A DNA stretch of 50,862 nucleotides from a bacterium (GTDB lineage: Bacteria; Patescibacteriota; Minisyncoccia; Phycocordibacterales; Phycocordibacteraceae). The DNA is taken from positions 1 to 50,862 of the forward strand of contig JAHFML010000003.1 in NCBI GenBank assembly GCA_023269085.1, written 5' to 3'. The position numbers were made by a program, and so were the translations under genes. Shown here one piece after another: positions 33,956 through 46,078 of this stretch (the first letter of the stretch is position 1; each line of letters starts with the position of its first letter). The notes under the pieces are model-generated. The model was not told the DNA's origin and searched no databases. It saw nothing but the letters and a program-made list of their open reading frames with translations.

Positions 33956-35212
33956 ATGCTCTCTCTTCTCAACATCCGCGTCGGCTTCTATCTCGCGCTT
34001 CGGCAGATTCGTCGCGCGAGCCGTTGGACGACGACGCTCATCGTCTTCGTGATGCTCCTCACATTCCTTAATCTCGTCGTCGTGACGGGCGTCTTGGTCG
34101 GCATCATCCAAGGCATCTCGAACCAGTACCGCACGCAAGAGACGGGCGATGTCGTCGTCTCATCGCTCGATTCAAAAGATTTCATCGAGAACAGCCCGCA
34201 GATTATCGCGCTCGTGAAGAGTCTGCCCGGCGTCGCGCAGGTGAGCTCGCGCTACATCGCGGGCGGCACCATCGAAGCGAATTACTTCTCCCGCGATCAG
34301 AAAGAGAAGCCGAACGAGACGGGCGCGAGCGTCGACGGCATCAACGTTGCCGACGAGAACGCGTTCTCAAATCTTTCAACCCATGTCGCCGAAGGATCGT
34401 ATCTCTCTTCGAGCGACTATGACACGGTCCTGCTCGGCTCGCAGCTCATCGACCGCTACTCCTTCGGTAAGATGCCGGGGCTGACCCCGCTCAAGAATGT
34501 GTACCCCGGCACGAAGATTCGCCTTACGCTCGGGGGTCATACGCGCGAGGTGGTCGTGAAGGGTATTGTCTCGGTCCCCGCCAATTCGCCTCTCGCCGCG
34601 CGCGTCTTCATGCCGGAGGGCGAAGTGCGCGAGCTCATCGGCCGTGATGATTATGCGGTCAACGAGATCGCGACCCTGCTTCTGCCGGGGACCGATCCGA
34701 TCGCCTTCCGCGATCTGCTCTTGCGAAGCGGCGTCGGCGCGAACGCCAAGGTGCAGACCTTCGAGGACGCGACGCCGAACGGCGTCGCGGAGATTAAAGA
34801 TACGTTCGCCATGATCGGCAACGCCATCGGGTCGATCGGTCTCGTCGTCGCCGCTATCACGATCTTCATCGTCATCTTCATCAACGCGGTCACGCGGCGC
34901 AAGTTCATCGGCATCTTGAAGGGTATCGGCATCTCGGGCGAGGCGATCGAGATCTCTTACATCTTCCAGTCGATCTTCTATGCCGCCATCGGCTCGTCGC
35001 TCGGCCTCCTCTTCCTCTACGGATTCCTCGTCCCCTATATCGCCGTGCACCCGATCGTGCTCCCGATCAGCAACGCTATTATCGTCGCGCCGGTTGCGAG
35101 CACGCTCCTGCGCATCCTGCTCCTCGTCGTCGCGACCATCATCGCCGGTTACCTGCCCGCGCGCATGATCGTGCGGAAGAATACGCTCGACTCTATCCTC
35201 GGCCGCACCTAG
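33956..35212 (+). CDS. MacB/FtsX-family ABC transporter permease
   Basis: TM, large extracellular domain, three TMs with RRKFIGILKGIG. Confidence 0.88.
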   Translation: MLSLLNIRVGFYLALRQIRRASRWTTTLIVFVMLLTFLNLVVVTGVLVGIIQGISNQYRTQETGDVVVSSLDSKDFIENSPQIIALVKSLPGVAQVSSRYIAGGTIEANYFSRDQKEKPNETGASVDGINVADENAFSNLSTHVAEGSYLSSSDYDTVLLGSQLIDRYSFGKMPGLTPLKNVYPGTKIRLTLGGHTREVVVKGIVSVPANSPLAARVFMPEGEVRELIGRDDYAVNEIATLLLPGTDPIAFRDLLLRSGVGANAKVQTFEDATPNGVAEIKDTFAMIGNAIGSIGLVVAAITIFIVIFINAVTRRKFIGILKGIGISGEAIEISYIFQSIFYAAIGSSLGLLFLYGFLVPYIAVHPIVLPISNAIIVAPVASTLLRILLLVVATIIAGYLPARMIVRKNTLDSILGRT

Positions 35213-35216
35213 ACCT

Positions 35217-35924
35217 ATGATTACCGTCAAACAATTGATACGAAGTTTCAAAGATGGCTCTCGCGAGACGCGCGTGCTGAAGGGCATCGACCTCATCGTA
35301 AAGAATGGCGAGTTCGTCGCTATCATCGGCCGCTCGGGAGCGGGGAAGAGCACGCTCCTGTACCAGATGTCGCTCCTCGACGAGCCGAGCGCGGGCGACG
35401 TCATCGTCGACGGCCACTCGACGAATGAAATGTCGACCGACGAAGAAACGCAATTTCGCCTCTTCAACTTCGGCTATGTCTTCCAAGACTATGCGCTCCT
35501 GCCCGAGCTCACGGCGCTCGAGAATGTCGTCCTCCCGCTCATCATGCAAGGGATGCCAATAGCGGCGGCCGAAGAGAAGGCGACGGCCGCCCTGCGCCGC
35601 GTCGGTCTCGACGGCCGCCTCGACAATCTCCCGAGCCAGCTCTCGGGCGGCGAACAGCAACGCGTCTCGATCTCGCGCGCGATCGCGCACACGCCGCACG
35701 TCCTCTTCGCCGATGAGCCGACCGCGAATCTCGACAAAGAGTCGTCGGCGGTCGTGATGCAGCTCTTCGCCGAGCTCCACGCGGCAGGTCAGACTATCAT
35801 CATGGTGACGCACGAAGACGATTTCGCACGCTTCGCCGAGCGCATCGTGAAGATCGACGATGGTATGATTGTGTCTGACGAGCGCGTTACGATTCGAAAC
35901 AGACCGCTCGAGAGTGGCGTATAA
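35217..35924 (+). CDS. ABC transporter ATP-binding protein (LolD/MacB type)
   Basis: GRSGAGKST, LSGGEQQRV, FADEPTANLD, MVTH. Confidence 0.95.
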   Translation: MITVKQLIRSFKDGSRETRVLKGIDLIVKNGEFVAIIGRSGAGKSTLLYQMSLLDEPSAGDVIVDGHSTNEMSTDEETQFRLFNFGYVFQDYALLPELTALENVVLPLIMQGMPIAAAEEKATAALRRVGLDGRLDNLPSQLSGGEQQRVSISRAIAHTPHVLFADEPTANLDKESSAVVMQLFAELHAAGQTIIMVTHEDDFARFAERIVKIDDGMIVSDERVTIRNRPLESGV

Positions 35925-35952
35925 AGAGCCATAACAATAACTTATGCACGGT

Positions 35953-36438
35953 ATGAAAAAGCTTATGATCGGTGCGACGCTTCTCACCTCGCTCCTCGCG
36001 GCAGGCACCGCCTTCGCCCAGGCTCCTCTGCCGCCGCGCGGAGAGCCGAACGAGACCGGCGAAGCGAGAGGTAGGATGATGGTCAGGCCGGTCGGCGTGT
36101 TCGGTGCGGTCGCGAGCTCGACGCTTCGCGAACGAGAGATGATGAATCTCCCGTCTCGTGAGTATCGAGAAAATGCGACTTCGACGCGCGGCCGCAAGGT
36201 GAATCGTGTCGAGATCGACAAGAAGCGACCAGCTCTCGCGACCTCGACAGCCGCACTCTACCGATTGCGGCAAGAACAGGGAGAGAAGCCGGTTATGCGG
36301 CCGATAAGGACAGCCCCCCAGTTGCACGCAACAACGACAAGCGCGAACAGCGCGTCATCGACACCGCCGCGCCGCGGCTTCGTCGGCGGGATGATGGGCG
36401 GCATCGGCGGCTTCTTCCAACGCATGTTCAGGTTCTAG
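35953..36438 (+). CDS. Secreted Arg-rich hypothetical protein
   Basis: Signal peptide MKKLMIG...TAFA; ATST motifs; GFF.RMF end. Confidence 0.65.
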   Translation: MKKLMIGATLLTSLLAAGTAFAQAPLPPRGEPNETGEARGRMMVRPVGVFGAVASSTLREREMMNLPSREYRENATSTRGRKVNRVEIDKKRPALATSTAALYRLRQEQGEKPVMRPIRTAPQLHATTTSANSASSTPPRRGFVGGMMGGIGGFFQRMFRF

Positions 36439-36459
36439 TTCCAACGCACCATAAGACGA

Positions 36460-36491
36460 AACAAAAACAGCCCGCATGGGCTGTTTTTGTT
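36460..36491. terminator. Terminator hairpin
   Basis: AACAAAAACAGCCC-gcat-GGGCTGTTTTTGTT. Confidence 0.75.
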
Positions 36492-36514
36492 GTTTGTGAT
36501 ATTCTGCTCTTATT

Positions 36515-36606
36515 GGAGACGTGGCTGAGTGGTCGAAAGCACCTCACTGCTAACGAGGCAGGGACGTTAAACTCCCTCGTGGGTTCAAATCCCACCGTCT
36601 CCGCCA
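36515..36606 (+). tRNA. tRNA-Ser(GCT)
   Basis: Acceptor GGAGACG/CGTCTCC then G-CCA; D-arm GCTGAGTGGTCGAAAGC; anticodon loop CT-GCT-AA (36549-36551); long variable arm; GGTTCAAATCC T-arm. Confidence 0.95.
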
Positions 36607-38100
36607 AAATTCAAAATCGGAATTGGAAGCCGAAATGGGGTCGCGCCGTAGGCGCGACACAAACGCATTCCCGCCAAAAATTCCTGAATCCAAAAGGTTT
36701 TTCCACGCTCCGCGTGGTTCAAAAAAGACGGTTCGATCCTTAATTTGAAAGTTCGAACCGACTTTTTGAAGTAAACGGATTTTTTCTCCGTTTACTTCCT
36801 CGTTTGCCAATTCCACATTGTATTTCAAAAACTTTTCGGTAAGTTCGAACCGATTATTCGCTTTTTGCTCAAAAGCCGATAATTTCTCTTTGAGAAGCTG
36901 TTTTTGATTAACTAGCGTGCTTTTAGCGCCCCGATATTCCTCTAGCGAAAGTGCGCTCTCTAAATAAGCATTCATCAGCTTCTCAATTTTAGAATCCAAA
37001 AGAGAAATTTCGGCTTTTGTGTTGTCTGCAAAAAGCGTAGACGACTGGATTTCTGATTGCCGATCTTTTGCGTTTTCGGCAATCATCCATTTAGCCCAAT
37101 CGTCTGGCAAAGAAACTTTTTTGATTTCCTTATTGATTTCGGAAGTGATGATTTCCTCGCGAGTATATTTTTGCGAACAAGGATTTTTCCGTTTGGTACA
37201 TCGCAAATAATTATGACCTTTCTGTGTCTCGGTAGTGATGAAGCAACCACACTCTCCGCAACGGAAAAATCCTCTGTACAAAAATGGTTTCAGTCCGCGA
37301 GATTTCGGCTTACTTTTTCGCATCATCACTTCCTGAACGGAATCAAAAAGTTTCTTTGAAATAATCGGTTCGTGCTTTCCCTCAAAAATCTCTCCGTTGT
37401 ACAACATCAATCCTGTATAGATAGGATTTTTGAGAAGTTTTTGATAATTCGACACCGCAAGTTCCTTTCCGCTTTTTCGCTTCAATCCAAGCCCATTAAA
37501 TTTGTCGCGGAGTTCCCGCAAAGTGAAGTTTCCGGTGGAATATGCCTCAAATGTTTTGCGAATAAGTGGAGCAAGTTCGGGGTCTGGCACAATACGCTTG
37601 TTTTTGTTCACATAGCCCAATGGCGACATTTGAGGCCATATACCTTCCTTCACTTTGTTTCTATGTCCACGCTTAATATTCTCCGACAAATTGTCCACAT
37701 AATACTTGGATTGCGAAAAGGCGATTGAGAGCATGAATTTGCCTTGCGGTGTCGGATCAAACCAAAAAGTTGGGAATTTCATTTCAGAAATTACACCAGT
37801 ATCAACGAGGTAGATGATCTTTCCTCCATCTACCGAGTTGCGAGCAAGTCTATCGGGATGCCACGCCAAAATACCAGTGGCTTCACCTTTTTCCATTCGC
37901 TCTATCATTTCATTAAACACGGGACGACCTGGTATTTTGGCGGTCTGCTTCTCGACAAAGACATCAACCACATCAAGCTGTTCTTTCAACGCTAACTCTT
38001 TTAATTCACTTAGTTGGTCAGCAATACTGCGGACTTGTCTGTCTTTGTCATCCGTAGACTTGCGAGTATATATGAAAAACTTTTTGGTTTGATTATTCAT
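36550..38100 (-). CDS. Large serine recombinase (resolvase, recombinase and Zn-ribbon domains), C-terminus read antisense through tRNA-Ser
   Basis: IYTRKSTDD..QVRSI..Q, WHPDRLARN, PLGY, LKNPIYTG, HEPIIS, CGECG...YLRC; start at MNNQTKK. Confidence 0.92.
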   Translation of the reverse strand: MNNQTKKFFIYTRKSTDDKDRQVRSIADQLSELKELALKEQLDVVDVFVEKQTAKIPGRPVFNEMIERMEKGEATGILAWHPDRLARNSVDGGKIIYLVDTGVISEMKFPTFWFDPTPQGKFMLSIAFSQSKYYVDNLSENIKRGHRNKVKEGIWPQMSPLGYVNKNKRIVPDPELAPLIRKTFEAYSTGNFTLRELRDKFNGLGLKRKSGKELAVSNYQKLLKNPIYTGLMLYNGEIFEGKHEPIISKKLFDSVQEVMMRKSKPKSRGLKPFLYRGFFRCGECGCFITTETQKGHNYLRCTKRKNPCSQKYTREEIITSEINKEIKKVSLPDDWAKWMIAENAKDRQSEIQSSTLFADNTKAEISLLDSKIEKLMNAYLESALSLEEYRGAKSTLVNQKQLLKEKLSAFEQKANNRFELTEKFLKYNVELANEEVNGEKIRLLQKVGSNFQIKDRTVFFEPRGAWKNLLDSGIFGGNAFVSRLRRDPISASNSDFEFWRRRWDLNPRGSLTSLPR

Positions 38101-38121
38101 AGAATTGTATTGGCAAACGAG

Positions 38122-38242
38122 TGAACCACGCGGAGCGTGGAAAAACCTTTTGGATTCAGGAATTTTTGGCGGGAATGCGTTTGTGTCGCGCCTACGGCGC
38201 GACCCCATTTCGGCTTCCAATTCCGATTTTGAATTTTGGCGG
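38122..38242. repeat. 121-bp inverted copy of 36601-36721 (left att arm / integrase 3' region)
   Basis: Exact reverse complement by inspection. Confidence 0.93.
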
Positions 38243-38441
38243 TGTGTATTGGACAAAGTTCGAATGTATTTCGGACAAAATCCGCAGGATTTTGACTAAT
38301 AATCTTTGCGCCTCGCACGCTCCCTTCGGTCGCAATCCCAAAACCAAAAATTTCCTTACTTTTCCTTCTTCGGCGGGGGGTGTGGGGGGAGCCGGCAAAA
38401 AATGGAAAGGAAAATTTTTGGTTTTGGTTCCGACGCTTCAT
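38236..38441. repeat. 206-bp inverted copy of 44106-44311 (right att arm)
   Basis: Reverse complement with one mismatch seen (KFSF versus KFSL in the ORF track); overlaps the previous repeat at the CCGCCAA core. Confidence 0.93.
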
Positions 38442-38533
38442 AATCCAATTATTCACACTTGTATTATAACTTATCATTGAGTCAAAACACAAGAGAATGC
38501 TATAATATCCGTGTTGATAAGTTTTCATACAAT

Positions 38534-38743
38534 ATGGCAAAATCCACAGCACAAAAATTTGGCGAAAATATGAAAAAAATTCGCCTTGAAAAAAGCATGT
38601 CGCAAGGCGATATTTGCCGAGAGTTAGGTTTAGATAGAGCGTATATAAGCAATGTTGAGAACGGCAAACAAAACCTTACAATCAGTACAATGGAAAAGGT
38701 CGCCAAAGCGTTGGGAGTTAGCATAGATCAACTTTTAAAATAG
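38534..38743 (+). CDS. XRE-family HTH regulator (RM controller C-protein-like)
   Basis: FGENMKKIRLEKSMSQ...DRAYISNVENGKQNLTI..MEKVAKAL. Confidence 0.9.
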   Translation: MAKSTAQKFGENMKKIRLEKSMSQGDICRELGLDRAYISNVENGKQNLTISTMEKVAKALGVSIDQLLK

Positions 38744-38745
38744 TT

Positions 38746-40419
38746 ATGAGCAAGCTTAAAGACATGCCAAATGTAGACCGCCCGCGAGAAAAATTTCTTG
38801 CGAAAGGTGCCGATGCTTTAACCAAAAGCGAACTTTTGGCGATTTTACTGGGAAGTGGAATAAAAGGCACAAATGTTAAAGAACTTTCGCAAAAAATTCT
38901 GCGAAAATTTGGGAATGGCTTTTTGCATGCAACCGTTGACGAGTTAGTACAAATTCCAGGAATCGGAAAGGCGAAAGCGTTGCAAATTGTTTCTGCGCTC
39001 GCCTTGGCTCGCAGAATACAGGAGGAGCAAAACAGTCCCGATAATCTTATTTTGTCCGCCAAAGACGCATTGTCATTGGTTTCGGACTTGAAAGACGCAA
39101 AAAGAGAAAACCTCGTCTGTTTGTACTTGAATGCACGAAATGCGTTACTTAAAAAAGAAATTGTTTCAGTCGGCACATTGGACAAGAGTTTGATACATCC
39201 GCGAGAAATTTTTGCACCAGGTCTTGAAGCACACGCAGCAGGGGTCATTCTTGTTCACAATCATCCGTCTGGGGATCCAAGCCCGAGCGAACAAGACAAA
39301 CAAGTTGCAAAAAGAATTATTGATGCAGGACAGTTAATGGGTATAAATGTTATAGATTTTCTTATCATCGCAAAAAACGGCTCCCATAGCGTTTTGGGAG
39401 AATTACAAAATACGGAACTAACTAATACGGAATATGTTGCAGAAGGTATTCAATCTTCACTTTTTGATTTAATGGTAGACGCAAACCAAGCATATTTTTA
39501 CGGCGTAAATAATAAGGTTCCAGAAAACAAAGGCAAAAAGGACGCTTTGAAGTTTATAGATCTTTTTGCTGGAATCGGTGGCTTTCATGTCGCCTTTCAT
39601 AATGCTGGCAGTGAGTGTGTTTTTGTCTCCGAATGGGACGAACCTGCACAACAAACCTATAAACATAACTTTTTCAAGCTATCGCCAGAGGTATTTCGCT
39701 CGGGAAATTTTGTCGGCGATATAACGAAAATCAAACCGAATGATATACCCGATTTTGATATTTTGACTGGAGGTTTTCCTTGTCAGCCATTCTCGCAAGC
39801 TGGCTTTAAAAAAGGATTTAACGAAACTCGTGGAACTTTATTTTTCGATATTGTTAAAATTTTAAAAGAAAAAAAGCCCCGTGCTTTTTTTCTGGAAAAT
39901 GTCCGCGGTTTATATAATCATGATAATGGTAAGACGTTTGAAACCATAAAAAGAGTCATAACGGAAGAACTGGGATATTCTTTCTTCCAAAAAATTGTAA
40001 AAGCTTCTGATTTTGGCTTACCGCAACACAGACCCCGCTTGTTTATGGTTGGATTCAGAGATAAATCCATTAACTTCAAATTTCCCGAACCTGTCAAAGA
40101 ACTCAAATATACAATGTCGGATATATTCGGCGGAAAATGCGATAAAGAGGTCGGCTTCACATTGCGTGTTGGTGGACGAGGGAGCAAGATAACTGACAGA
40201 AGAAATTGGGACGCATATCGAGTAAACGGAAAAATCGTACAACTTGGACCAAAGGAAGGGTTAAAAATGCAAGGGTTCCCAGATTGGTTTGAATTTCCGC
40301 AAGGCATTTCCAGCGTCCAGTCCATGAAGCAATTGGGTAATTCCGTCGCTATTCCCGCAATACAGGCTGTTGCTGAAAAAATAATTGAAACATTGAATGA
40401 ATATGATCAAAGAAAATAA
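38746..40419 (+). CDS. RadC (HhH plus JAB) fused to a C5 DNA cytosine methyltransferase
   Basis: RPREKF..KGADAL...ELLAILL, HPREIF, HNHPSGD; then DLFAGIGGF, GGFPCQPFS, ENVRGL, PQHRPR, KQLGNSV. Confidence 0.92.
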   Translation: MSKLKDMPNVDRPREKFLAKGADALTKSELLAILLGSGIKGTNVKELSQKILRKFGNGFLHATVDELVQIPGIGKAKALQIVSALALARRIQEEQNSPDNLILSAKDALSLVSDLKDAKRENLVCLYLNARNALLKKEIVSVGTLDKSLIHPREIFAPGLEAHAAGVILVHNHPSGDPSPSEQDKQVAKRIIDAGQLMGINVIDFLIIAKNGSHSVLGELQNTELTNTEYVAEGIQSSLFDLMVDANQAYFYGVNNKVPENKGKKDALKFIDLFAGIGGFHVAFHNAGSECVFVSEWDEPAQQTYKHNFFKLSPEVFRSGNFVGDITKIKPNDIPDFDILTGGFPCQPFSQAGFKKGFNETRGTLFFDIVKILKEKKPRAFFLENVRGLYNHDNGKTFETIKRVITEELGYSFFQKIVKASDFGLPQHRPRLFMVGFRDKSINFKFPEPVKELKYTMSDIFGGKCDKEVGFTLRVGGRGSKITDRRNWDAYRVNGKIVQLGPKEGLKMQGFPDWFEFPQGISSVQSMKQLGNSVAIPAIQAVAEKIIETLNEYDQRK

Positions 40420-41491
40420 CAAAGGAGAATGGTCGGAATTTTACGCTTTCCTTAAAATTCTTGAGGATAGAAAACTTTTTGCAGCGGACAAAAATCTTGA
40501 AATAATAGATGGAAAGTTTTTCGTATTTCACAAAATATTCAGAGACGAGAAAGACGAACCCGTTAAAATTTATGATCTTTCACAATCGGACACGCAAGTA
40601 ATAATCACCGACGAAGCAGGAAGAACCATTAAAGAGTTTGACTCCTCCGTTTTGAAAGAAAAGACATTGAAAATTTTTGAACGAATCAGAGATGAAAAAA
40701 GTCGATCATTCACAATTCCAGAAGCGTGCGAGCTCATGGAGGAATTGCTTTGCACAAAAGTAAAAGCAAGTAGTAGTGAAAAAGCTGATCTTGTTGCGAT
40801 TATCTATGATCGGATTTCTAAAACAGCACCGATGCTCGGATTCTCCATAAAATCTATGATCGGAGGAGCATCCACATTGCTTAATCCTGGTAAAACTACA
40901 AACTTTGTTTTTGAAATAAAAGGTTTTACAGGCAATGTGGATGAAGTGAATGCCATAGAAACAAATGCTCAAATTCGTGATCGTGTTAAAAAAATATCGG
41001 AACAAAACGGAGTTTTTGATTTTGTAGGGGTGTCCAATGAACAGTTTTCCTCGAACATGAAAATGATTGATACGGCATTGCCAGAGTTTATCGCATCAAT
41101 GCTTTTGGATTTTTTCTCAAACAGTCGGAAAACAGTTGCGGATCTGGCAGGTGCTCTTTCGGAAGATGCAAAAATAACCACAAAGTACGGACTATCTCTC
41201 ACAAACTACGAATATAAAATCAAAAACTTTTTGGACGCGGTCGCGCTTGGTATGGTGCCAAGCAAACCCTGGGACGGTTTTGCTAAAGCACATGGTGGGT
41301 ATATTGTCGTAAAAGAAAATGGCGATGTGGTTTGTTATCACTTATACAATCGTGATGAATTTCGAGCATATTTATACGAAAACACGAAGTTTGACGCGGC
41401 AAGCACAACTCGTTATGAATACGGCAAGCTATACGAGAAAAATGGAAAGCTGTTTTTTAACCTCAACCTGCAAATTAGATTTTTGAAATAG
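40397..41491 (+). CDS. Type II restriction endonuclease, HpaII-like family
   Basis: NKGEWSE N-terminus, KAD...GFSIKS..G...TLLN, GMVPSKPWDG...GGYIVVK, LNLQIRF; overlaps the MTase stop. Confidence 0.8.
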   Translation: MNMIKENNKGEWSEFYAFLKILEDRKLFAADKNLEIIDGKFFVFHKIFRDEKDEPVKIYDLSQSDTQVIITDEAGRTIKEFDSSVLKEKTLKIFERIRDEKSRSFTIPEACELMEELLCTKVKASSSEKADLVAIIYDRISKTAPMLGFSIKSMIGGASTLLNPGKTTNFVFEIKGFTGNVDEVNAIETNAQIRDRVKKISEQNGVFDFVGVSNEQFSSNMKMIDTALPEFIASMLLDFFSNSRKTVADLAGALSEDAKITTKYGLSLTNYEYKIKNFLDAVALGMVPSKPWDGFAKAHGGYIVVKENGDVVCYHLYNRDEFRAYLYENTKFDAASTTRYEYGKLYEKNGKLFFNLNLQIRFLK

Positions 41492-41507
41492 AGAGAACAT
41501 TTAAACT

Positions 41508-42926
41508 ATGAAAAATAAATTTATAAAAAAGGATATTTCGATAAAAGGCTTGTCTCTTTGGGATGAAAATGCACGTTTCCCAGATAAATATTTTAGTAAG
41601 ACAGAGAAGGAGCTTATTGGTTATTTTGTATCCAAAAAGGATTTTAAGATAAATGAATTTTCTGAAGAAGTTGTAAAGGAGTTTGATTTGCCGCAACTAG
41701 AAAAATTGGTTGTATATGAGTTTAATGGCAAAAAAATAGTTTTGGAGGGCAACCGTCGTCTTGCGGTTTATAAACTTTTAAATGATCCAAAATTAACTGA
41801 CGATACGAAACTGCAAGGCAAGCTTACTGGTTTAAGATCGAAGATAAAAATTGACGATAATTTTAAGCTAGAGTGTTTGATTTCTAAAGACAAGGAGCAG
41901 GGTCTGCGGTATATAAACAGGAAACACTTGCGAGGCAATAACGAAGTTTCTTGGGGTGATAATGAGAGAGCTCATCATAATGCACGTGGAGGGAATGCAA
42001 ATCAAAAAGAACTCCTGAAAGTTGCAATTACTAAAGTCATCAAAGATCTTGAACTTCCAGAACAATTGAAGGAACAAGTATTGGGACATGGTTTTGTAAC
42101 TACCCTTTGGAGGTTAGTTGAACAAAAGCCAGCGTGGTCTGCCTTTGGATTTTCACTTGATAAAAGCGGAGAACTAAAAATCACAGACAAAGATTTTAAG
42201 GACAAGCTAAAAGTTATTATTTTTGATGTTCTGCAAAAGGGTAAGTATAACGGAAAGCTATTTTCGCGTTTAAATGTAAAAGACATCGAAGGTTATTTGG
42301 GAGGAATTACAAAAGAAGATTATAAAAGAGTTTCTGATGACATAAAGAAACAAACCAAGACAGATCTTTTTGGCAAGGAATCAACTATCATTGCTTCATC
42401 AGGAAACAATGGAAACCGAAGTAATCCAAAATCATCACTTCGTGATTATTTAATTCCAAAAACGTGTGTATTTCAAATTCACGAAACAAAGATCAATAAT
42501 ATTTACTGCGAACTTAAAAATGACCTTTTGATTGATGACTCGAAAAAGGCTGTGCCAAATGCCGTCGGGGTATTATTTAGGGTTTTCTTAGAAATATCCT
42601 TGGATCACTATGCAAAAATGAATAGTCATGGATTTAAAAAGACAGATACAATTAATCAAAAAATTTCTTGGGTCGTCAAAAGTTTAGAGGGCAAGAAATA
42701 TGATAAAAAGAAGTTTAACAATATAAACAAAGTTGGTTCTGCAACAGGCACAAAAAGTTATTTATCAATAGAAAATTTCCATGAATATGTTCATTCTGTA
42801 ACAACACAGCCAACATCGAGTGAATTGAAGGGAAAATGGGACAACCTGCAAGGATTTTTTGAAATCCTATGGGGAGATTTGAATAAAAAAGCAAAATCTA
42901 AAAAACAATATGCAAAAAAGAAATAG
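41508..42926 (+). CDS. ParB/Srx-like N-terminal plus HEPN-like C-terminal protein
   Basis: ENARF...VLEGNRRLAVYKLL (ParB-like); NAVGVLFRVFLE...FHEYVH (HEPN-like). Confidence 0.62.
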   Translation: MKNKFIKKDISIKGLSLWDENARFPDKYFSKTEKELIGYFVSKKDFKINEFSEEVVKEFDLPQLEKLVVYEFNGKKIVLEGNRRLAVYKLLNDPKLTDDTKLQGKLTGLRSKIKIDDNFKLECLISKDKEQGLRYINRKHLRGNNEVSWGDNERAHHNARGGNANQKELLKVAITKVIKDLELPEQLKEQVLGHGFVTTLWRLVEQKPAWSAFGFSLDKSGELKITDKDFKDKLKVIIFDVLQKGKYNGKLFSRLNVKDIEGYLGGITKEDYKRVSDDIKKQTKTDLFGKESTIIASSGNNGNRSNPKSSLRDYLIPKTCVFQIHETKINNIYCELKNDLLIDDSKKAVPNAVGVLFRVFLEISLDHYAKMNSHGFKKTDTINQKISWVVKSLEGKKYDKKKFNNINKVGSATGTKSYLSIENFHEYVHSVTTQPTSSELKGKWDNLQGFFEILWGDLNKKAKSKKQYAKKK

Positions 42927-43776
42927 AAAAAAAATATCGGGTTTCTCTAGCCCCTTGCGTTATCCAGGCGGGAAAACTCGACTTGCCAATAAACTACTTG
43001 AGGCAATGGAGAAAAACTTTGACCAAAAAGAAAAAGTGGTTTTGGTGGAGCCATATGCTGGTGGAGCGGGGGCTTCACTTGCTCTGCTTTTTGCCAAAAA
43101 AGTTGAAAGAATTGTTATCAATGATCTTGATAAGGCTATTTTTACTTTCTGGAAAATAGCTGTGTCTGATACTGACTATTTAATAAATAAAATAAAACGA
43201 ACAGAAGTTACTATTGAGGAATGGAGAAGGCAAAAAGCAATATACATTTCAACAAAAGACGAACGAAAACTTGCATTTGCGACTCTGTTTTTAAATAGAA
43301 CAAACCGTTCTGGGATTATGAGAGGTGGACCAATAGGCGGATTTGATCAATCTGGAACATGGAAAGTGAATGCTCGATTTACTAAAAAAACAATCATTGA
43401 TCGTCTAGAAAAAGTAAAAGAATTCCGTAATAAAATTGAGGTAAGTAATCTGGACGGAGTAGCATTGTTAAAAAGATTGGAAAAACGCAATAGTGAGAAT
43501 CAATATTTTATATTTCTTGACCCGCCATATTTTCAAAAAGGACAATCTTTATACCTAAACCATTACAACAATGAGGATCATGAAAATCTGTCAGAATTCT
43601 TGAGAAAATCATCTTTCAAAAAATGGGTTATGACTTATGATGATGTGCCGTATATTAAAAACTTGTATGCAACAATGCGTACTAAGGGGTTTGCAATTCA
43701 GCATAATGCATACGAATCCAAAATAGGCAGAGAGGTTATGATTTTTCCAAAAGGGTTTACCCCTGTGAATATTTAA
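42910..43776 (+). CDS. Dam/D12-class DNA adenine methyltransferase
   Basis: SPLRYPGGK, EPYAGGAG, INDLD, FLNRTNRSG, FLDPPY, WVMTYD. Confidence 0.92.
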   Translation: MQKRNRKKISGFSSPLRYPGGKTRLANKLLEAMEKNFDQKEKVVLVEPYAGGAGASLALLFAKKVERIVINDLDKAIFTFWKIAVSDTDYLINKIKRTEVTIEEWRRQKAIYISTKDERKLAFATLFLNRTNRSGIMRGGPIGGFDQSGTWKVNARFTKKTIIDRLEKVKEFRNKIEVSNLDGVALLKRLEKRNSENQYFIFLDPPYFQKGQSLYLNHYNNEDHENLSEFLRKSSFKKWVMTYDDVPYIKNLYATMRTKGFAIQHNAYESKIGREVMIFPKGFTPVNI

Positions 43777-44318
43777 GGGAGCCGTCCGCGTTAGCGGATG
43801 GGCTTTGTGCGCGCACTGGGAGGGTGGGGCAAGCACATATAAAATTGTTTGTGCCTCACACAATCCGCCTTTCAGAGTTACCACAGACTCAAACGAAGTC
43901 ACAGAGCGAACACGAAGCAACGCCGAGCAGGCATCGTGAGCGAATGCGAACGGCCTATGCGAGGTGGTGCGAAGTGTGAGCGGACTCTCGAATTACCACA
44001 AAACGCGGATATGGGAGCGCCTCGCACCGACGCGAATGACGGAAGAAAGGACGGACAAAATACTGCCACAATGCTAAAATATAAATACAAGTCCTTTCTG
44101 GAGGAATGAAGCGTCGGAACCAAAACCAAAAATTTTCCCTTCCATTTTTTGCCGGCTCCCCCCACACCCCCCGCCGAAGAAGGAAAAGTAAGGAAATTTT
44201 TGGTTTTGGGATTGCGACCGAAGGGAGCGTGCGAGGCGCAAAGATTATTAGTCAAAATCCTGCGGATTTTGTCCGAAATACATTCGAACTTTGTCCAATA
44301 CACACCGCCAATATATTT

Positions 44319-44981
44319 CTAGTGCGCCAAAGCGAGAGGAATAATCTGTGTCGCGCCCGCGGCGCGGAGCGCGTCGATGGCGGCTTGGAGCGTCGCGCCG
44401 GTGGTGAGGACGTCGTCGATGACGAAGTAGGTGCGGGCGGGGTCGAACGGATGCGCGGCGTCTTCTGCAACGCGAAAGGCGCCGCGCATGTTCTCTTCGC
44501 GTTCTCTCCGCGGGAGCGACACCTGCGAGGCGGTCTCGCGCGTGCGGACGAGCAGGGAAGGCTCAAGGGCGAATCCCTGAACATCGTGCAACGCCCCCCG
44601 TATTACTTCTTCGACCTGATTGAAGCCGCGCTCACGCCGTCGCGCCGCGCCGAGCGGTATCGGCACGATCGAGACAAGGTTCGACCTTAGCCCAGAATTC
44701 TCAAGGTCGAACCTTGTCTCGTCGAACTCGGCCTCGCGAAGATACTCGGCGAGCGCGAGCGCGAGGAGCGCCTGTGCGCGCGCCGAGCCGTGATACTTCG
44801 CTTCGTGTATCGCCGAACGCACGAGTGGCTCCTGGAAGGGGAGAAGAACGACCGTGCCCGGCCGCGTGCAGGGCGCGAGGCGCGGTGCAATGAGAGAGAG
44901 GAAGTCGTCATCAGAAATGGCACGAAGTGATTCTTCATCACTGCGCGGGGGGAAGAGCATGTCCATGAGGCGTCGCAACAT
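44319..44981 (-). CDS. comF: ComF-family phosphoribosyltransferase-like competence protein
   Basis: IHEAKY, IVPIPL...RERGFNQ, IDDVLTTGATL. Confidence 0.9.
   Translation of the reverse strand: MLRRLMDMLFPPRSDEESLRAISDDDFLSLIAPRLAPCTRPGTVVLLPFQEPLVRSAIHEAKYHGSARAQALLALALAEYLREAEFDETRFDLENSGLRSNLVSIVPIPLGAARRRERGFNQVEEVIRGALHDVQGFALEPSLLVRTRETASQVSLPRREREENMRGAFRVAEDAAHPFDPARTYFVIDDVLTTGATLQAAIDALRAAGATQIIPLALAH
44670..44721. repeat. 19-bp perfect inverted repeat inside the comF coding sequence
   Basis: CGAGACAAGGTTCGACCTT-N14-AAGGTCGAACCTTGTCTCG. Confidence 0.9.
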
Positions 44982-44995
44982 GGTACTATTTTCGC

Positions 44996-46078
44996 ATGTC
45001 GTTCTTCGATTCGCTATTTACGAAAAAAGAAGGAAGCGTGCTCGGCGTCGACATCGGGTCGTCGTCGCTCAAGGTCGTCCAGCTGCGCCGCGAGAAAGGG
45101 CAGGCCGTGCTTGAGACCTATGGCGAGCTCGCGCTCGGGCCGTATGCGGGCGTCCAAGTCGGACAGGCGACGAATCTCTCGGCAGAGCAGATCGCCGAGA
45201 CGCTCAAAGATCTCCTGCGCGAGGCGAAGGTGACGACGACCAACTGCGGCGTCTCGATTCCCTTCGCGCGGTCGCTCCTCTCTCTCGTGCGTCTGCCCTA
45301 TCGCAAGAGCCAGCAGGAACAGCAGACGATTATCGAGCTCGAAGCGCGCAAATATATACCCGTGCCAGTGAGCGAGGTCCAGCTCGACTGGTTCGTCGTG
45401 CCGAAGATGGAGCTCGGCGGGAGGGAAGATGAGAGAGAAAAGGATACCGTCGAGGTGCTGATCGTCGCGGTCCACAATGACGAGCTCGCGCTACTGCAGA
45501 GCGTCATGGCGGGCGCCAGTCTCGCGGCGACCTTCTACGAGATCGAGATCTTCAGCACTATTCGCGCGGTCGTCGATGAACCGGTCAAGCCGGTGATGAT
45601 CCTCGACCTCGGCGCCGCCTCGACGAAGGTCTACATCGTCGAACACGGCGTCGTCGCGCTCTCGCACTCGATCGGCACCGGCAGTCAAGACATCACGCGC
45701 GCGATTGCCGTCTCCTCGGACGTCTCACTCGCTCGCGCCGAAGCGCTCAAGAAGGAGCGCGGGCTCCTACGCGACAGCGTCTCGAGCAAGAATTCAGAAG
45801 TCATATTCTCGAACATCTTTTCCGAAGCGCGCCGTGCCATGGTGCAATATGAGACGCTTCATAAGCGGGCGGTCAGCTCTATCATGCTTACCGGCGGCGG
45901 CGGCGTGACCAAGGAGTTGAGCGCGTATGCGAAGCAGACATTCTCGATCGATGTGCGCGTAGCGAACCCGTTCGCGAAGACGGCCGCACCGGCCTTCATG
46001 CGCCCAGTGCTCGAAGAGATAGGGCCAGAGTTCGCCGTCGCCGTCGGCCTCGCCCTCCGCAAGCTTGAGGAAGAATGA
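44996..46078 (+). CDS. pilM: Type IV pilus assembly protein PilM
   Basis: LGVDIGSSSLKVVQL, EARKYIP...VQLDW, ILDLGAAST, LTGGG, NPF, FAVAVGLALR. Confidence 0.92.
   Translation: MSFFDSLFTKKEGSVLGVDIGSSSLKVVQLRREKGQAVLETYGELALGPYAGVQVGQATNLSAEQIAETLKDLLREAKVTTTNCGVSIPFARSLLSLVRLPYRKSQQEQQTIIELEARKYIPVPVSEVQLDWFVVPKMELGGREDEREKDTVEVLIVAVHNDELALLQSVMAGASLAATFYEIEIFSTIRAVVDEPVKPVMILDLGAASTKVYIVEHGVVALSHSIGTGSQDITRAIAVSSDVSLARAEALKKERGLLRDSVSSKNSEVIFSNIFSEARRAMVQYETLHKRAVSSIMLTGGGGVTKELSAYAKQTFSIDVRVANPFAKTAAPAFMRPVLEEIGPEFAVAVGLALRKLEEE

Follow-up and report, generated by a model that had tools for sequence, protein, structure and literature searches.

A complete, inverted attP between the integrase gene and the cargo of serine-integrase islands in Patescibacteria

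The island at the tRNA-Ser gene

The DNA analysed here, called the window in the following, is a stretch of 50,862 bases and forms the first part of a 148.7-kb contig. The assembly, from an ultra-small CPR bacterium, consists of 14 contigs with a total of 710,721 bases. The window contains a mobile island of 7.7 kb (36601-44311) at the 3' end of a tRNA-Ser gene. The G+C content is about 38% across the island and about 60% in the host. Besides its integrase (Int, a large serine recombinase) the island encodes a restriction-modification (R-M) cargo and a small HTH protein. We have very little doubt about this anatomy or about the membership of the island in the family described below.

The tRNA-Ser(GCT) gene is located at 36515-36606 on the plus strand (ARAGORN; Rfam tRNA, 58.3 bits), and an Rfam scan of 36300-44700 at E≤1 gave this tRNA and otherwise chance-level matches only. 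The 3' end of the gene is the left half of attB and of attL, with the T-loop motif TTCAAA 11 nt before the core, counted as motif spacing. The attL core, CCGCCAA (36601-36607), and the left (P') arm, here called a, together occupy 36601-36721 (plus strand). The int gene, coding for 516 aa, is read from the minus strand (36550-38100, ATG at 38100). A gap of 21 nt (38101-38121, upstream of int on the minus strand) separates its start codon from the segment 38122-38441, to which most of this analysis is devoted. Beyond this segment the cargo operon is read from the plus strand, divergently from int. The best candidate from a consensus scan for its promoter is sigma-70-like, TTGAGT-18-TATAAT with a TG extension (38477-38506). 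The first cargo gene codes for an XRE-type HTH protein of 72 aa (38525-38743; Pfam HTH_3, 2.8e-16). It is followed by genes for a RadC/JAB-C5 cytosine methyltransferase fusion (38746-40419; Pfam DNA_methylase 4.5e-80, RadC 5.3e-36), a HpaII-type restriction endonuclease (40397-41491; Pfam RE_HpaII 2.1e-108), a 472-aa protein without a match in the Pfam scan (41508-42926) and a D12-class N6-adenine methyltransferase, also assigned by Pfam (42910-43776). A GC-rich conserved non-coding block (43777-44105, plus strand) lies at the 3' end of the cargo and adjoins the right (P) arm, here called d, which is taken together with the attR core (44106-44311, plus strand; core at 44305-44311). The d arm contains a long imperfect palindrome and an Int-proximal TTCGAAC motif, and its predicted DNA fold has an energy of -34.2 kcal/mol (z -3.44).

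It should be noted that the fusion protein encoded at 38746-40419, upstream of the HpaII-type endonuclease, joins a RadC-like JAB domain and a UPF0758 N-terminal region to the C5 methyltransferase. This is an unusual make-up for the methylase of a type II system.

Both int and the R-M cargo are enclosed by inverted repeats. The first pair, 36601-36721 and 38122-38242, is identical over all of its 121 nt. The second pair, 38233-38441 and 44106-44314, is 99% identical over 209 nt; its true identity stops at 44311, after which comes host flank (CCGCCAA is followed by TAT in attR and by AAT in attP). The two pairs overlap within the middle copy. Repeats of 121 and about 206 nt are, by their mere length, far beyond chance, and a chance figure is needless. 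The 7-nt core CCGCCAA is common to 36601-36607, 38236-38242 (inverted) and 44305-44311. At attL the tRNA sequence runs ...TCTCCGCCAA and is followed by AATTC, at attR we find ...ACACCGCCAA followed by TATAT, and the internal copy on the minus strand has ...ACACCGCCAA followed by AATTC. A sequence-only reading of this locus had proposed that 38122-38441 is the reverse complement of the right arm (44106-44311) plus core plus left arm (36601-36721), with one mismatch between the copies. Base-by-base alignment agrees on both points. It gives a' at 38122-38235, the core at 38236-38242 and d' at 38243-38441, and it places the only internal mismatch of the right pair at 44139, which is C against T in the internal copy read in the same orientation. 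The segment is a complete attP, inverted, inside an integrated island; on the minus strand it reads d-core-a and lies immediately upstream of int.

The integrase and its attachment sites

Int has the Pfam domains Resolvase (PF00239, 2.2e-19), Recombinase (PF07508, 4.3e-15) and Zn_ribbon_recom (PF13408, 5.9e-07), and the N-terminal motif IYTRKST is present. Its similarity to the closest solved relatives, SPbeta YokA/SprA (E 1.2e-07) and the A118 integrase (E 4.9e-05), is weak. The same set of resolvase, recombinase and zinc-ribbon domains is found in the large serine integrases such as Listeria A118/LI Int, SPbeta SprA/YokA, Bxb1 and phiC31. These integrases likewise recombine attP with attB to give hybrid attL and attR sites around a short core, and hybrids around a short identical core are seen here and at 20 further loci.

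Of 41 elements, 28 have the motif TTCRAR in the P (d) arm, exactly 16 nt ahead of the core; in 38 it stands in the T-loop of the tRNA, 11 nt ahead of the core. Where both distances could be measured the P-arm distance minus the tRNA distance was +5 in 28 of 31 elements, and by eye most of the remaining cases have TTCGGA at the same position. In the present island TTCGAA lies 16 nt from the core in attP and the tRNA counterpart 11 nt from it. For the LI integrase, Rutherford et al. (2013, PMC3783163) found that attB differs from attP in having the motif for the zinc-ribbon domain "shifted by 5 bp toward the center", and they explained directionality by this shift. The shift matches ours, and we therefore take d-core-a to be a real attP and the tRNA end to be a real attB, at least in its left half. 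No clear motif was found in the right half-sites.

The island family differs in several respects from the elements of the known large serine integrases. Those elements have one attP, which is split on integration, whereas the islands keep a second, complete and inverted attP. The target of the islands is the extreme 3' end of tRNA-Ser genes with any anticodon. The host-side (right) half of attB has no conserved word. No recombination directionality factor was recognised by Pfam among the cargo proteins, such factors being too diverse for family scans.

The int reading frame crosses the core and stops within the antisense strand of the tRNA gene, so that the present C-terminus is ...EFWRRRWDLNPRGSLTSLPR followed by the stop codon. 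The a arm on its minus strand codes for about the last 40 in-island residues. The frame read through the internal copy would end ...EFWRCVLDKVRMYFGQNPQDFD and a stop codon, which is an end of 18 residues. The proposal that flipping 36601-38242 would join int to another C-terminus is thus correct, and only the last 16 to 18 residues of Int would be altered. The last 16 int codons (36550-36600) are the antisense of the 3' end of the tRNA. This is why WRR and DSNPR motifs recur in the relatives, and the annotated C-terminus of Int consequently depends on the site of insertion.

The gap between the int start codon and the repeat (38101-38121) holds a conserved word, CTCGTTTGCCAATACAAT, which is a possible -10 sequence of a leaderless int transcript. 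The word TTTGCCAATRC was found at a fixed distance after the internal attP in 24 of 81 loci. The sequence CTCGTTTGCCAAT, which immediately precedes the int ATG, has an inverted 13-nt copy at 36801-36813, 79 nt beyond the a arm and inside the 3' coding region of int. Conservation between loci is seen for the upstream copy with TACAAT, whose end is 5 nt away from the ATG, and this suggests a leaderless int transcript.

A family of islands with two linked copies

A BLAST search of the island against its own genome revealed a second, smaller island of the same family on another contig, at tRNA-Ser(CGA) (L001 4518-8531, corresponding to about 53517-57530 on contig C5 of G000). Its inverted repeats of 134 nt (99% identical) and 245 nt (100%) overlap by 7 nt. 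The integrase gene lies within the first pair, and two small ORFs of 161 and 211 aa, both without a Pfam match, lie within the second. The integrase is only 40% identical to Int of the window.

A scan of one genome per prokaryote species confirmed 430 relatives, from which 80 loci were kept, nearly all of them labelled Patescibacteria-type. An inverted repeat flanking int was present at each of the 51 loci with enough flank. The two copies were at least 95% identical in 35 of these loci and less so in the other 16. The second pair, around the cargo, was found in 21 of 32 loci with at least 9 kb upstream. The sequence-only reading had suggested a search for the same arrangement in related islands, and the arrangement is there, in the second island as well as in 51 out of 51 testable loci. 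Several of the relatives are on contigs whose names point to long-read assemblers. The segment 38122-38441 is thus the intact half of a duplicated, inverted attachment site that is carried throughout a large Patescibacteria island family.

These observations bear on the explanation that the layout arose in the assembly, as an artefact, or by one accidental duplication that is peculiar to this genome. The repeats do exceed common k-mer sizes, and many related contigs break in them or contain int only. However, the layout occurs in the diverged second island and in all 51 testable loci, which come from many projects and assemblers, the copies co-evolve (see below), and there is one true mismatch between the two copies in the window. 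We find this explanation scarcely credible. Template switching between circle and chromosome, which had been put forward as another source of the arrangement, is rejected by the same recurrence.

The copies within an island are linked in their evolution. When the window is compared with locus L005, 23 fixed differences are carried by both copies against 1 within a pair, and in five more comparisons each arm had 4 to 92 differences shared by the copies, compared to 0 to 9 within pairs. Judged by these counts the two attP copies evolve in concert. The a-arm repeat is limited by the int start region and by the C-terminal coding region of int, the d-arm repeat by the cargo promoter and the cargo 3' block, and a gene conversion that spread from the duplicated site until it was stopped by selection would account for such limits. 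In some islands the arm pairs have decayed to 74-94% identity with the integrase frame still open. In 30 such decayed pairs the differences amounted to 8.4% in the first 20 nt from the core and 8-12% further out. The differences are not fewer near the core, and the spare site is therefore not specially preserved in the decayed loci; selection for it in these pairs was rejected on this ground. A clean swapping of modules from core to core was also considered and is unsupported, as the block of high identity shared with L004 begins about 73 nt inside the d arm, off the core.

The cargo of the family is varied and often defence-like, including restriction-modification, an AbiE-like ATPase with HNH, SMODS and TIR. 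In 12 of 20 related loci the first cargo gene codes for a small HTH_3 protein. The block 43777-44105 is about 76% identical to the matching block of the second island and has relatives in at least 9 islands with differing cargo. It has 32 predicted pairs, 11 of them with a compensatory change, an optional middle part and a 3' hairpin, and it has no Rfam match at E≤1. It is a candidate for a structured RNA or DNA element of the island.

Tandem arrays were found as well, three islands in L028 (1-13760) and two in L038 (1-11447), joined by hybrid d-core-a junctions. These junctions imply that occupied sites are reused as targets, which is not predicted by the standard attP x attB rule.

Two further observations concern the loci themselves. 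ARAGORN reports a tRNA-Ser with the odd anticodon ACT beside a divergent tRNA-Ser(GCT) at L013 (9775-9864) and at L028 (13555-13642). Integrases that are 78-91% identical to Int of the window are present in bins labelled Gammaproteobacteria, Bdellovibrionales, Bacteroidota and Tepidisphaeraceae (L003, L006, L007, L025, L031, L080 and others); these are either mis-binned or mislabelled CPR contigs or the result of a very wide recent transfer.

Full-text searches of openly accessible articles brought up neither a natural inverted spare attP nor an account of this island family. What sets the family apart is the complete inverted spare attP between int and the cargo.

Orientation and possible roles of the spare site

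In the standard layout the 3' end of int points toward a tRNA. This layout was found in 55 of 65 loci, with the tRNA on the opposite strand and abutting the int 3' end; 50 of these tRNAs are Ser (four anticodons), 4 are Gln and 1 is Pro. The reverse layout, in which a tRNA-Ser precedes the int start, was found in 3 of 60 loci (L013, L042 and L054). All three are unverifiable, and each of them ends in or at the int module. In 16 of 22 loci no cargo gene shares the strand of int, and the other 6 have cargo genes on both strands.

The reverse layout was also sought as a sequence pattern, in which the spacing typical of the tRNA comes first, then the a arm, then the word found upstream of int. This pattern is present in 1 of 81 loci, compared to 24 of 81 for the normal internal pattern, and in 1 of 401 sampled genomes of the phylum, in which the printed start of the match is unlike the arm. 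It was found on 30 metagenome contigs, with a tRNA-Ser at the core according to ARAGORN in 24 and the Int N-terminus directly after it in 15; these 15 all stop in or at the int module, and none reads beyond the far arm. One of the contigs, L103, begins inside the repeat as a fold-back. The far junction expected from a simple flip, used as a strict pattern, was found in 0 of 120 loci, with the reservation that the normal-attL control matched only 4 and the search thus is insensitive. The reverse layouts may be wrong assembler paths through a repeat of at least 120 nt, or they may be real inversions. The most telling locus is L054 (1-2786), where the int module is alone, without cargo, between tRNA-Ser(GCT) on the plus strand and an inverted tRNA-Ser(GGA) on the minus strand. 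Its arms differ at 5 sites and there is no third copy in the bin. Just such an arrangement would be expected if a live spare attP had recombined with a second attB, be it in a double attP x attB exchange or in an inversion. In the groundwater samples from which the window derives, the Logan contigs on 35000-46000 stop 30 nt inside each repeat and do not link the flanks.

The sequence-only reading had also proposed an invertible switch of integrase or defence genes. That int and the cargo lie between inverted repeats is correct, and by geometry a flip of 38236-44311 would indeed invert the R-M cargo. Most observations speak against a routine switch: reverse layouts amount to 3 of 60 loci, and the cargo promoter candidate (38477-38506), which matches the consensus in 10 of 12 positions, is located outside the repeat and within the cargo segment that would be flipped. 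Promoters borne by the repeats themselves were considered and do not fit, the promoter candidates being outside the repeats.

The explanation that we favour starts from a free form of the island. This form would be a circle in which two inverted attP regions of about 320 bp separate an int segment from a cargo segment. On integration Int would act on one of the copies (d-core-a) together with attB, the 3' end of tRNA-Ser(GCT), so that the used copy is divided between attL (tRNA-core-a) and attR (d-core-host). The second copy would remain intact, flanked by the 5' ends of int and of the cargo operon. By the standard rules such a spare copy should react only with a B-type site, which could be the attB of a second tRNA-Ser gene, or the attL of the island itself if the weakly specified right half is irrelevant. 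Either reaction would invert DNA and set the int start beside a tRNA-Ser gene. Occasional inversions via the spare copy would then account for the rare reverse layouts, and the stable majority state would be the standard one, in which int is read antisense to the tRNA and divergently from the cargo. As a whole, this explanation, the duplicated inverted attachment site of a family with the spare copy as a live substrate of Int, seems to us slightly more likely than not. The part which states that the spare copy is a live Int substrate and not a promoter switch is tentative and may well prove wrong.

Several points weaken the role as a live substrate. Standard serine integrases are not reported to pair attP with attL or attR. 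Free tRNA-Ser genes coexist with the spare attP. The genome of the window has two unoccupied tRNA-Ser genes, TGA (C2, 242085-242172) and GGA (C5, 28259-28344). Both share the T-loop and core words and are candidate attB sites beside two islands with a spare attP, and no sign of rearrangement between these genes and the two spare sites was found in this genome. The frequency of the reverse pattern, 1 in 401 genomes, points the same way.

A more regular use of the attL reaction would be an on/off switch of the integrase, in which attL and the spare attP are the sites of exchange and Int thereby inverts the segment with its own gene. The int gene would move from a silent antisense position to one behind the tRNA-Ser promoter, resulting in rare bursts of Int. 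The geometry fits this model, as the perfect 121-nt inverted repeats on either side of int contain the core, and both sites would be unchanged by flipping so that the reaction could be repeated. The int start and the conserved upstream word would move with the segment. A tRNA-Ser-core-a sequence followed by the Int start is indeed what is present in the 3 reverse loci and the 15 metagenome contigs. However, the predicted far junction (a'-core-d'-cargo) is on no contig, subject to the caveats on assembly given above, and L054 has a second tRNA in its place. Moreover, attP x attL is reported to be a forbidden pairing for the studied serine integrases, and transcription from the tRNA into int is an assumption of the model. 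We judge both the switch and the proposed bursts unlikely.

The spare site might also be a cis-acting binding site at which no strands are exchanged. Int bound there would regulate the divergent promoters of int and the HTH gene, or it would assist the pairing of attL with attR in excision, so that no separate directionality factor is required. This model agrees with the constant position of the spare site, which is always where int and the first cargo gene diverge, the latter coding for a small HTH protein in the window and in the 12 of 20 loci mentioned. It also agrees with the nearly fixed orientation of both segments, which is expected if no exchange takes place, and with a cargo in which no directionality factor was recognised. 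On the other hand, the distance from the core is about 130 nt to the int start and about 240 nt to the cargo promoter candidate, which makes simple occlusion unlikely, and a binding site needs about 50 bp and not 320 bp; the surplus could be explained by the spread of gene conversion suggested above. Regulation and assisted pairing alike are, in our opinion, distinctly unlikely.

A fourth possibility is that the duplication matters only in the free circle, either for an isomerisation or amplification like that of the 2-micron plasmid or by offering two chances of integration, and that the integrated spare copy is a leftover. The yeast 2-micron plasmid has FLP with its FRT targets within long inverted repeats. 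The inferred circle resembles it in having two long inverted repeats with recombinase targets and the recombinase gene in one of the unique segments. The near-identity of the copies in most islands and their decay in others would fit a homogenisation in the mobile phase and decay after long residence. FLP is, in contrast, a tyrosine recombinase acting on two identical sites of a replicating plasmid, whereas the island has a serine integrase with attP/attB asymmetry and lives integrated. No replication gene was found in the cargo of the window or among 72 cargo proteins from 20 related loci and the second island. With integration through both copies, the int start would be expected beside the tRNA in about half of the islands; it is so placed in only 3 of 60. 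Finally, the contig depth of the cargo is close to that of the flanks (63 against 51 and 52 against 50), which suggests about one island per genome and gives no indication of amplified circles, contig depth being a crude measure. No contig in four runs joins 36606 to 44312, as an empty attB would; rare variants are lost from contigs, however, and the junction of a circle would have the same sequence as the spare copy. We consider a role confined to the circle quite improbable.

Two schemes were discarded on paper: the integration of folded single-stranded DNA, or that of linear fragments, via the spare site would be unworkable, as it would break the chromosome.

The island may be compared with two further systems. 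Hin/hix and Gin/gix are small invertases that use an enhancer, Fis and 26-bp sites and move a promoter. Like hin, int codes for a serine recombinase and is enclosed by inverted copies of the site of this recombinase. The island differs from these in having a 516-aa integrase, arms of 121 and 206 nt, a promoter candidate inside the segment and one dominant orientation. The mark of invertible switches, of the Hin/Gin type or shufflons, is a moved promoter or a swapped coding end which alters expression; nothing of this kind was found for the cargo, and for int a change of upstream sequence would be expected. In phiC31 RMCE, an engineered cassette exchange with inverted attP sites, the cassette is flanked by inverted att sites as in the islands, and int of L054 between two tRNA-Ser genes resembles the product of a double exchange. 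RMCE is man-made, and a natural role of the islands in exchange is only a possibility.

What the spare attP may mean

Serine integrases are prized as one-way tools for genome engineering, and their direction is thought to be set only by the type of site and a helper protein. A natural family which always keeps a putatively live attP in the integrated element would offer an unstudied way to control or exploit these enzymes. The clean 5-bp shift supplies ready-made attP/attB pairs for bench tests.

A bolder proposal regards the spare attP as a control device that is built into serine-integrase elements of a new kind. Two ways of action are conceivable. Recombination with attL could flip int behind the tRNA-Ser promoter and thus act as a self-resetting generator of excision pulses, or an Int dimer at the spare site could unlock attL and attR in cis and so replace the directionality factor. 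We would not expect this proposal to hold, in either form. If it were true, the one-way rule of serine integrases would be broken by the layout of the DNA and not by an extra protein.

The family moves genes of the restriction-modification and defence type between very distant CPR lineages, and it would accordingly bear on gene exchange and genome rearrangement in these uncultured bacteria.
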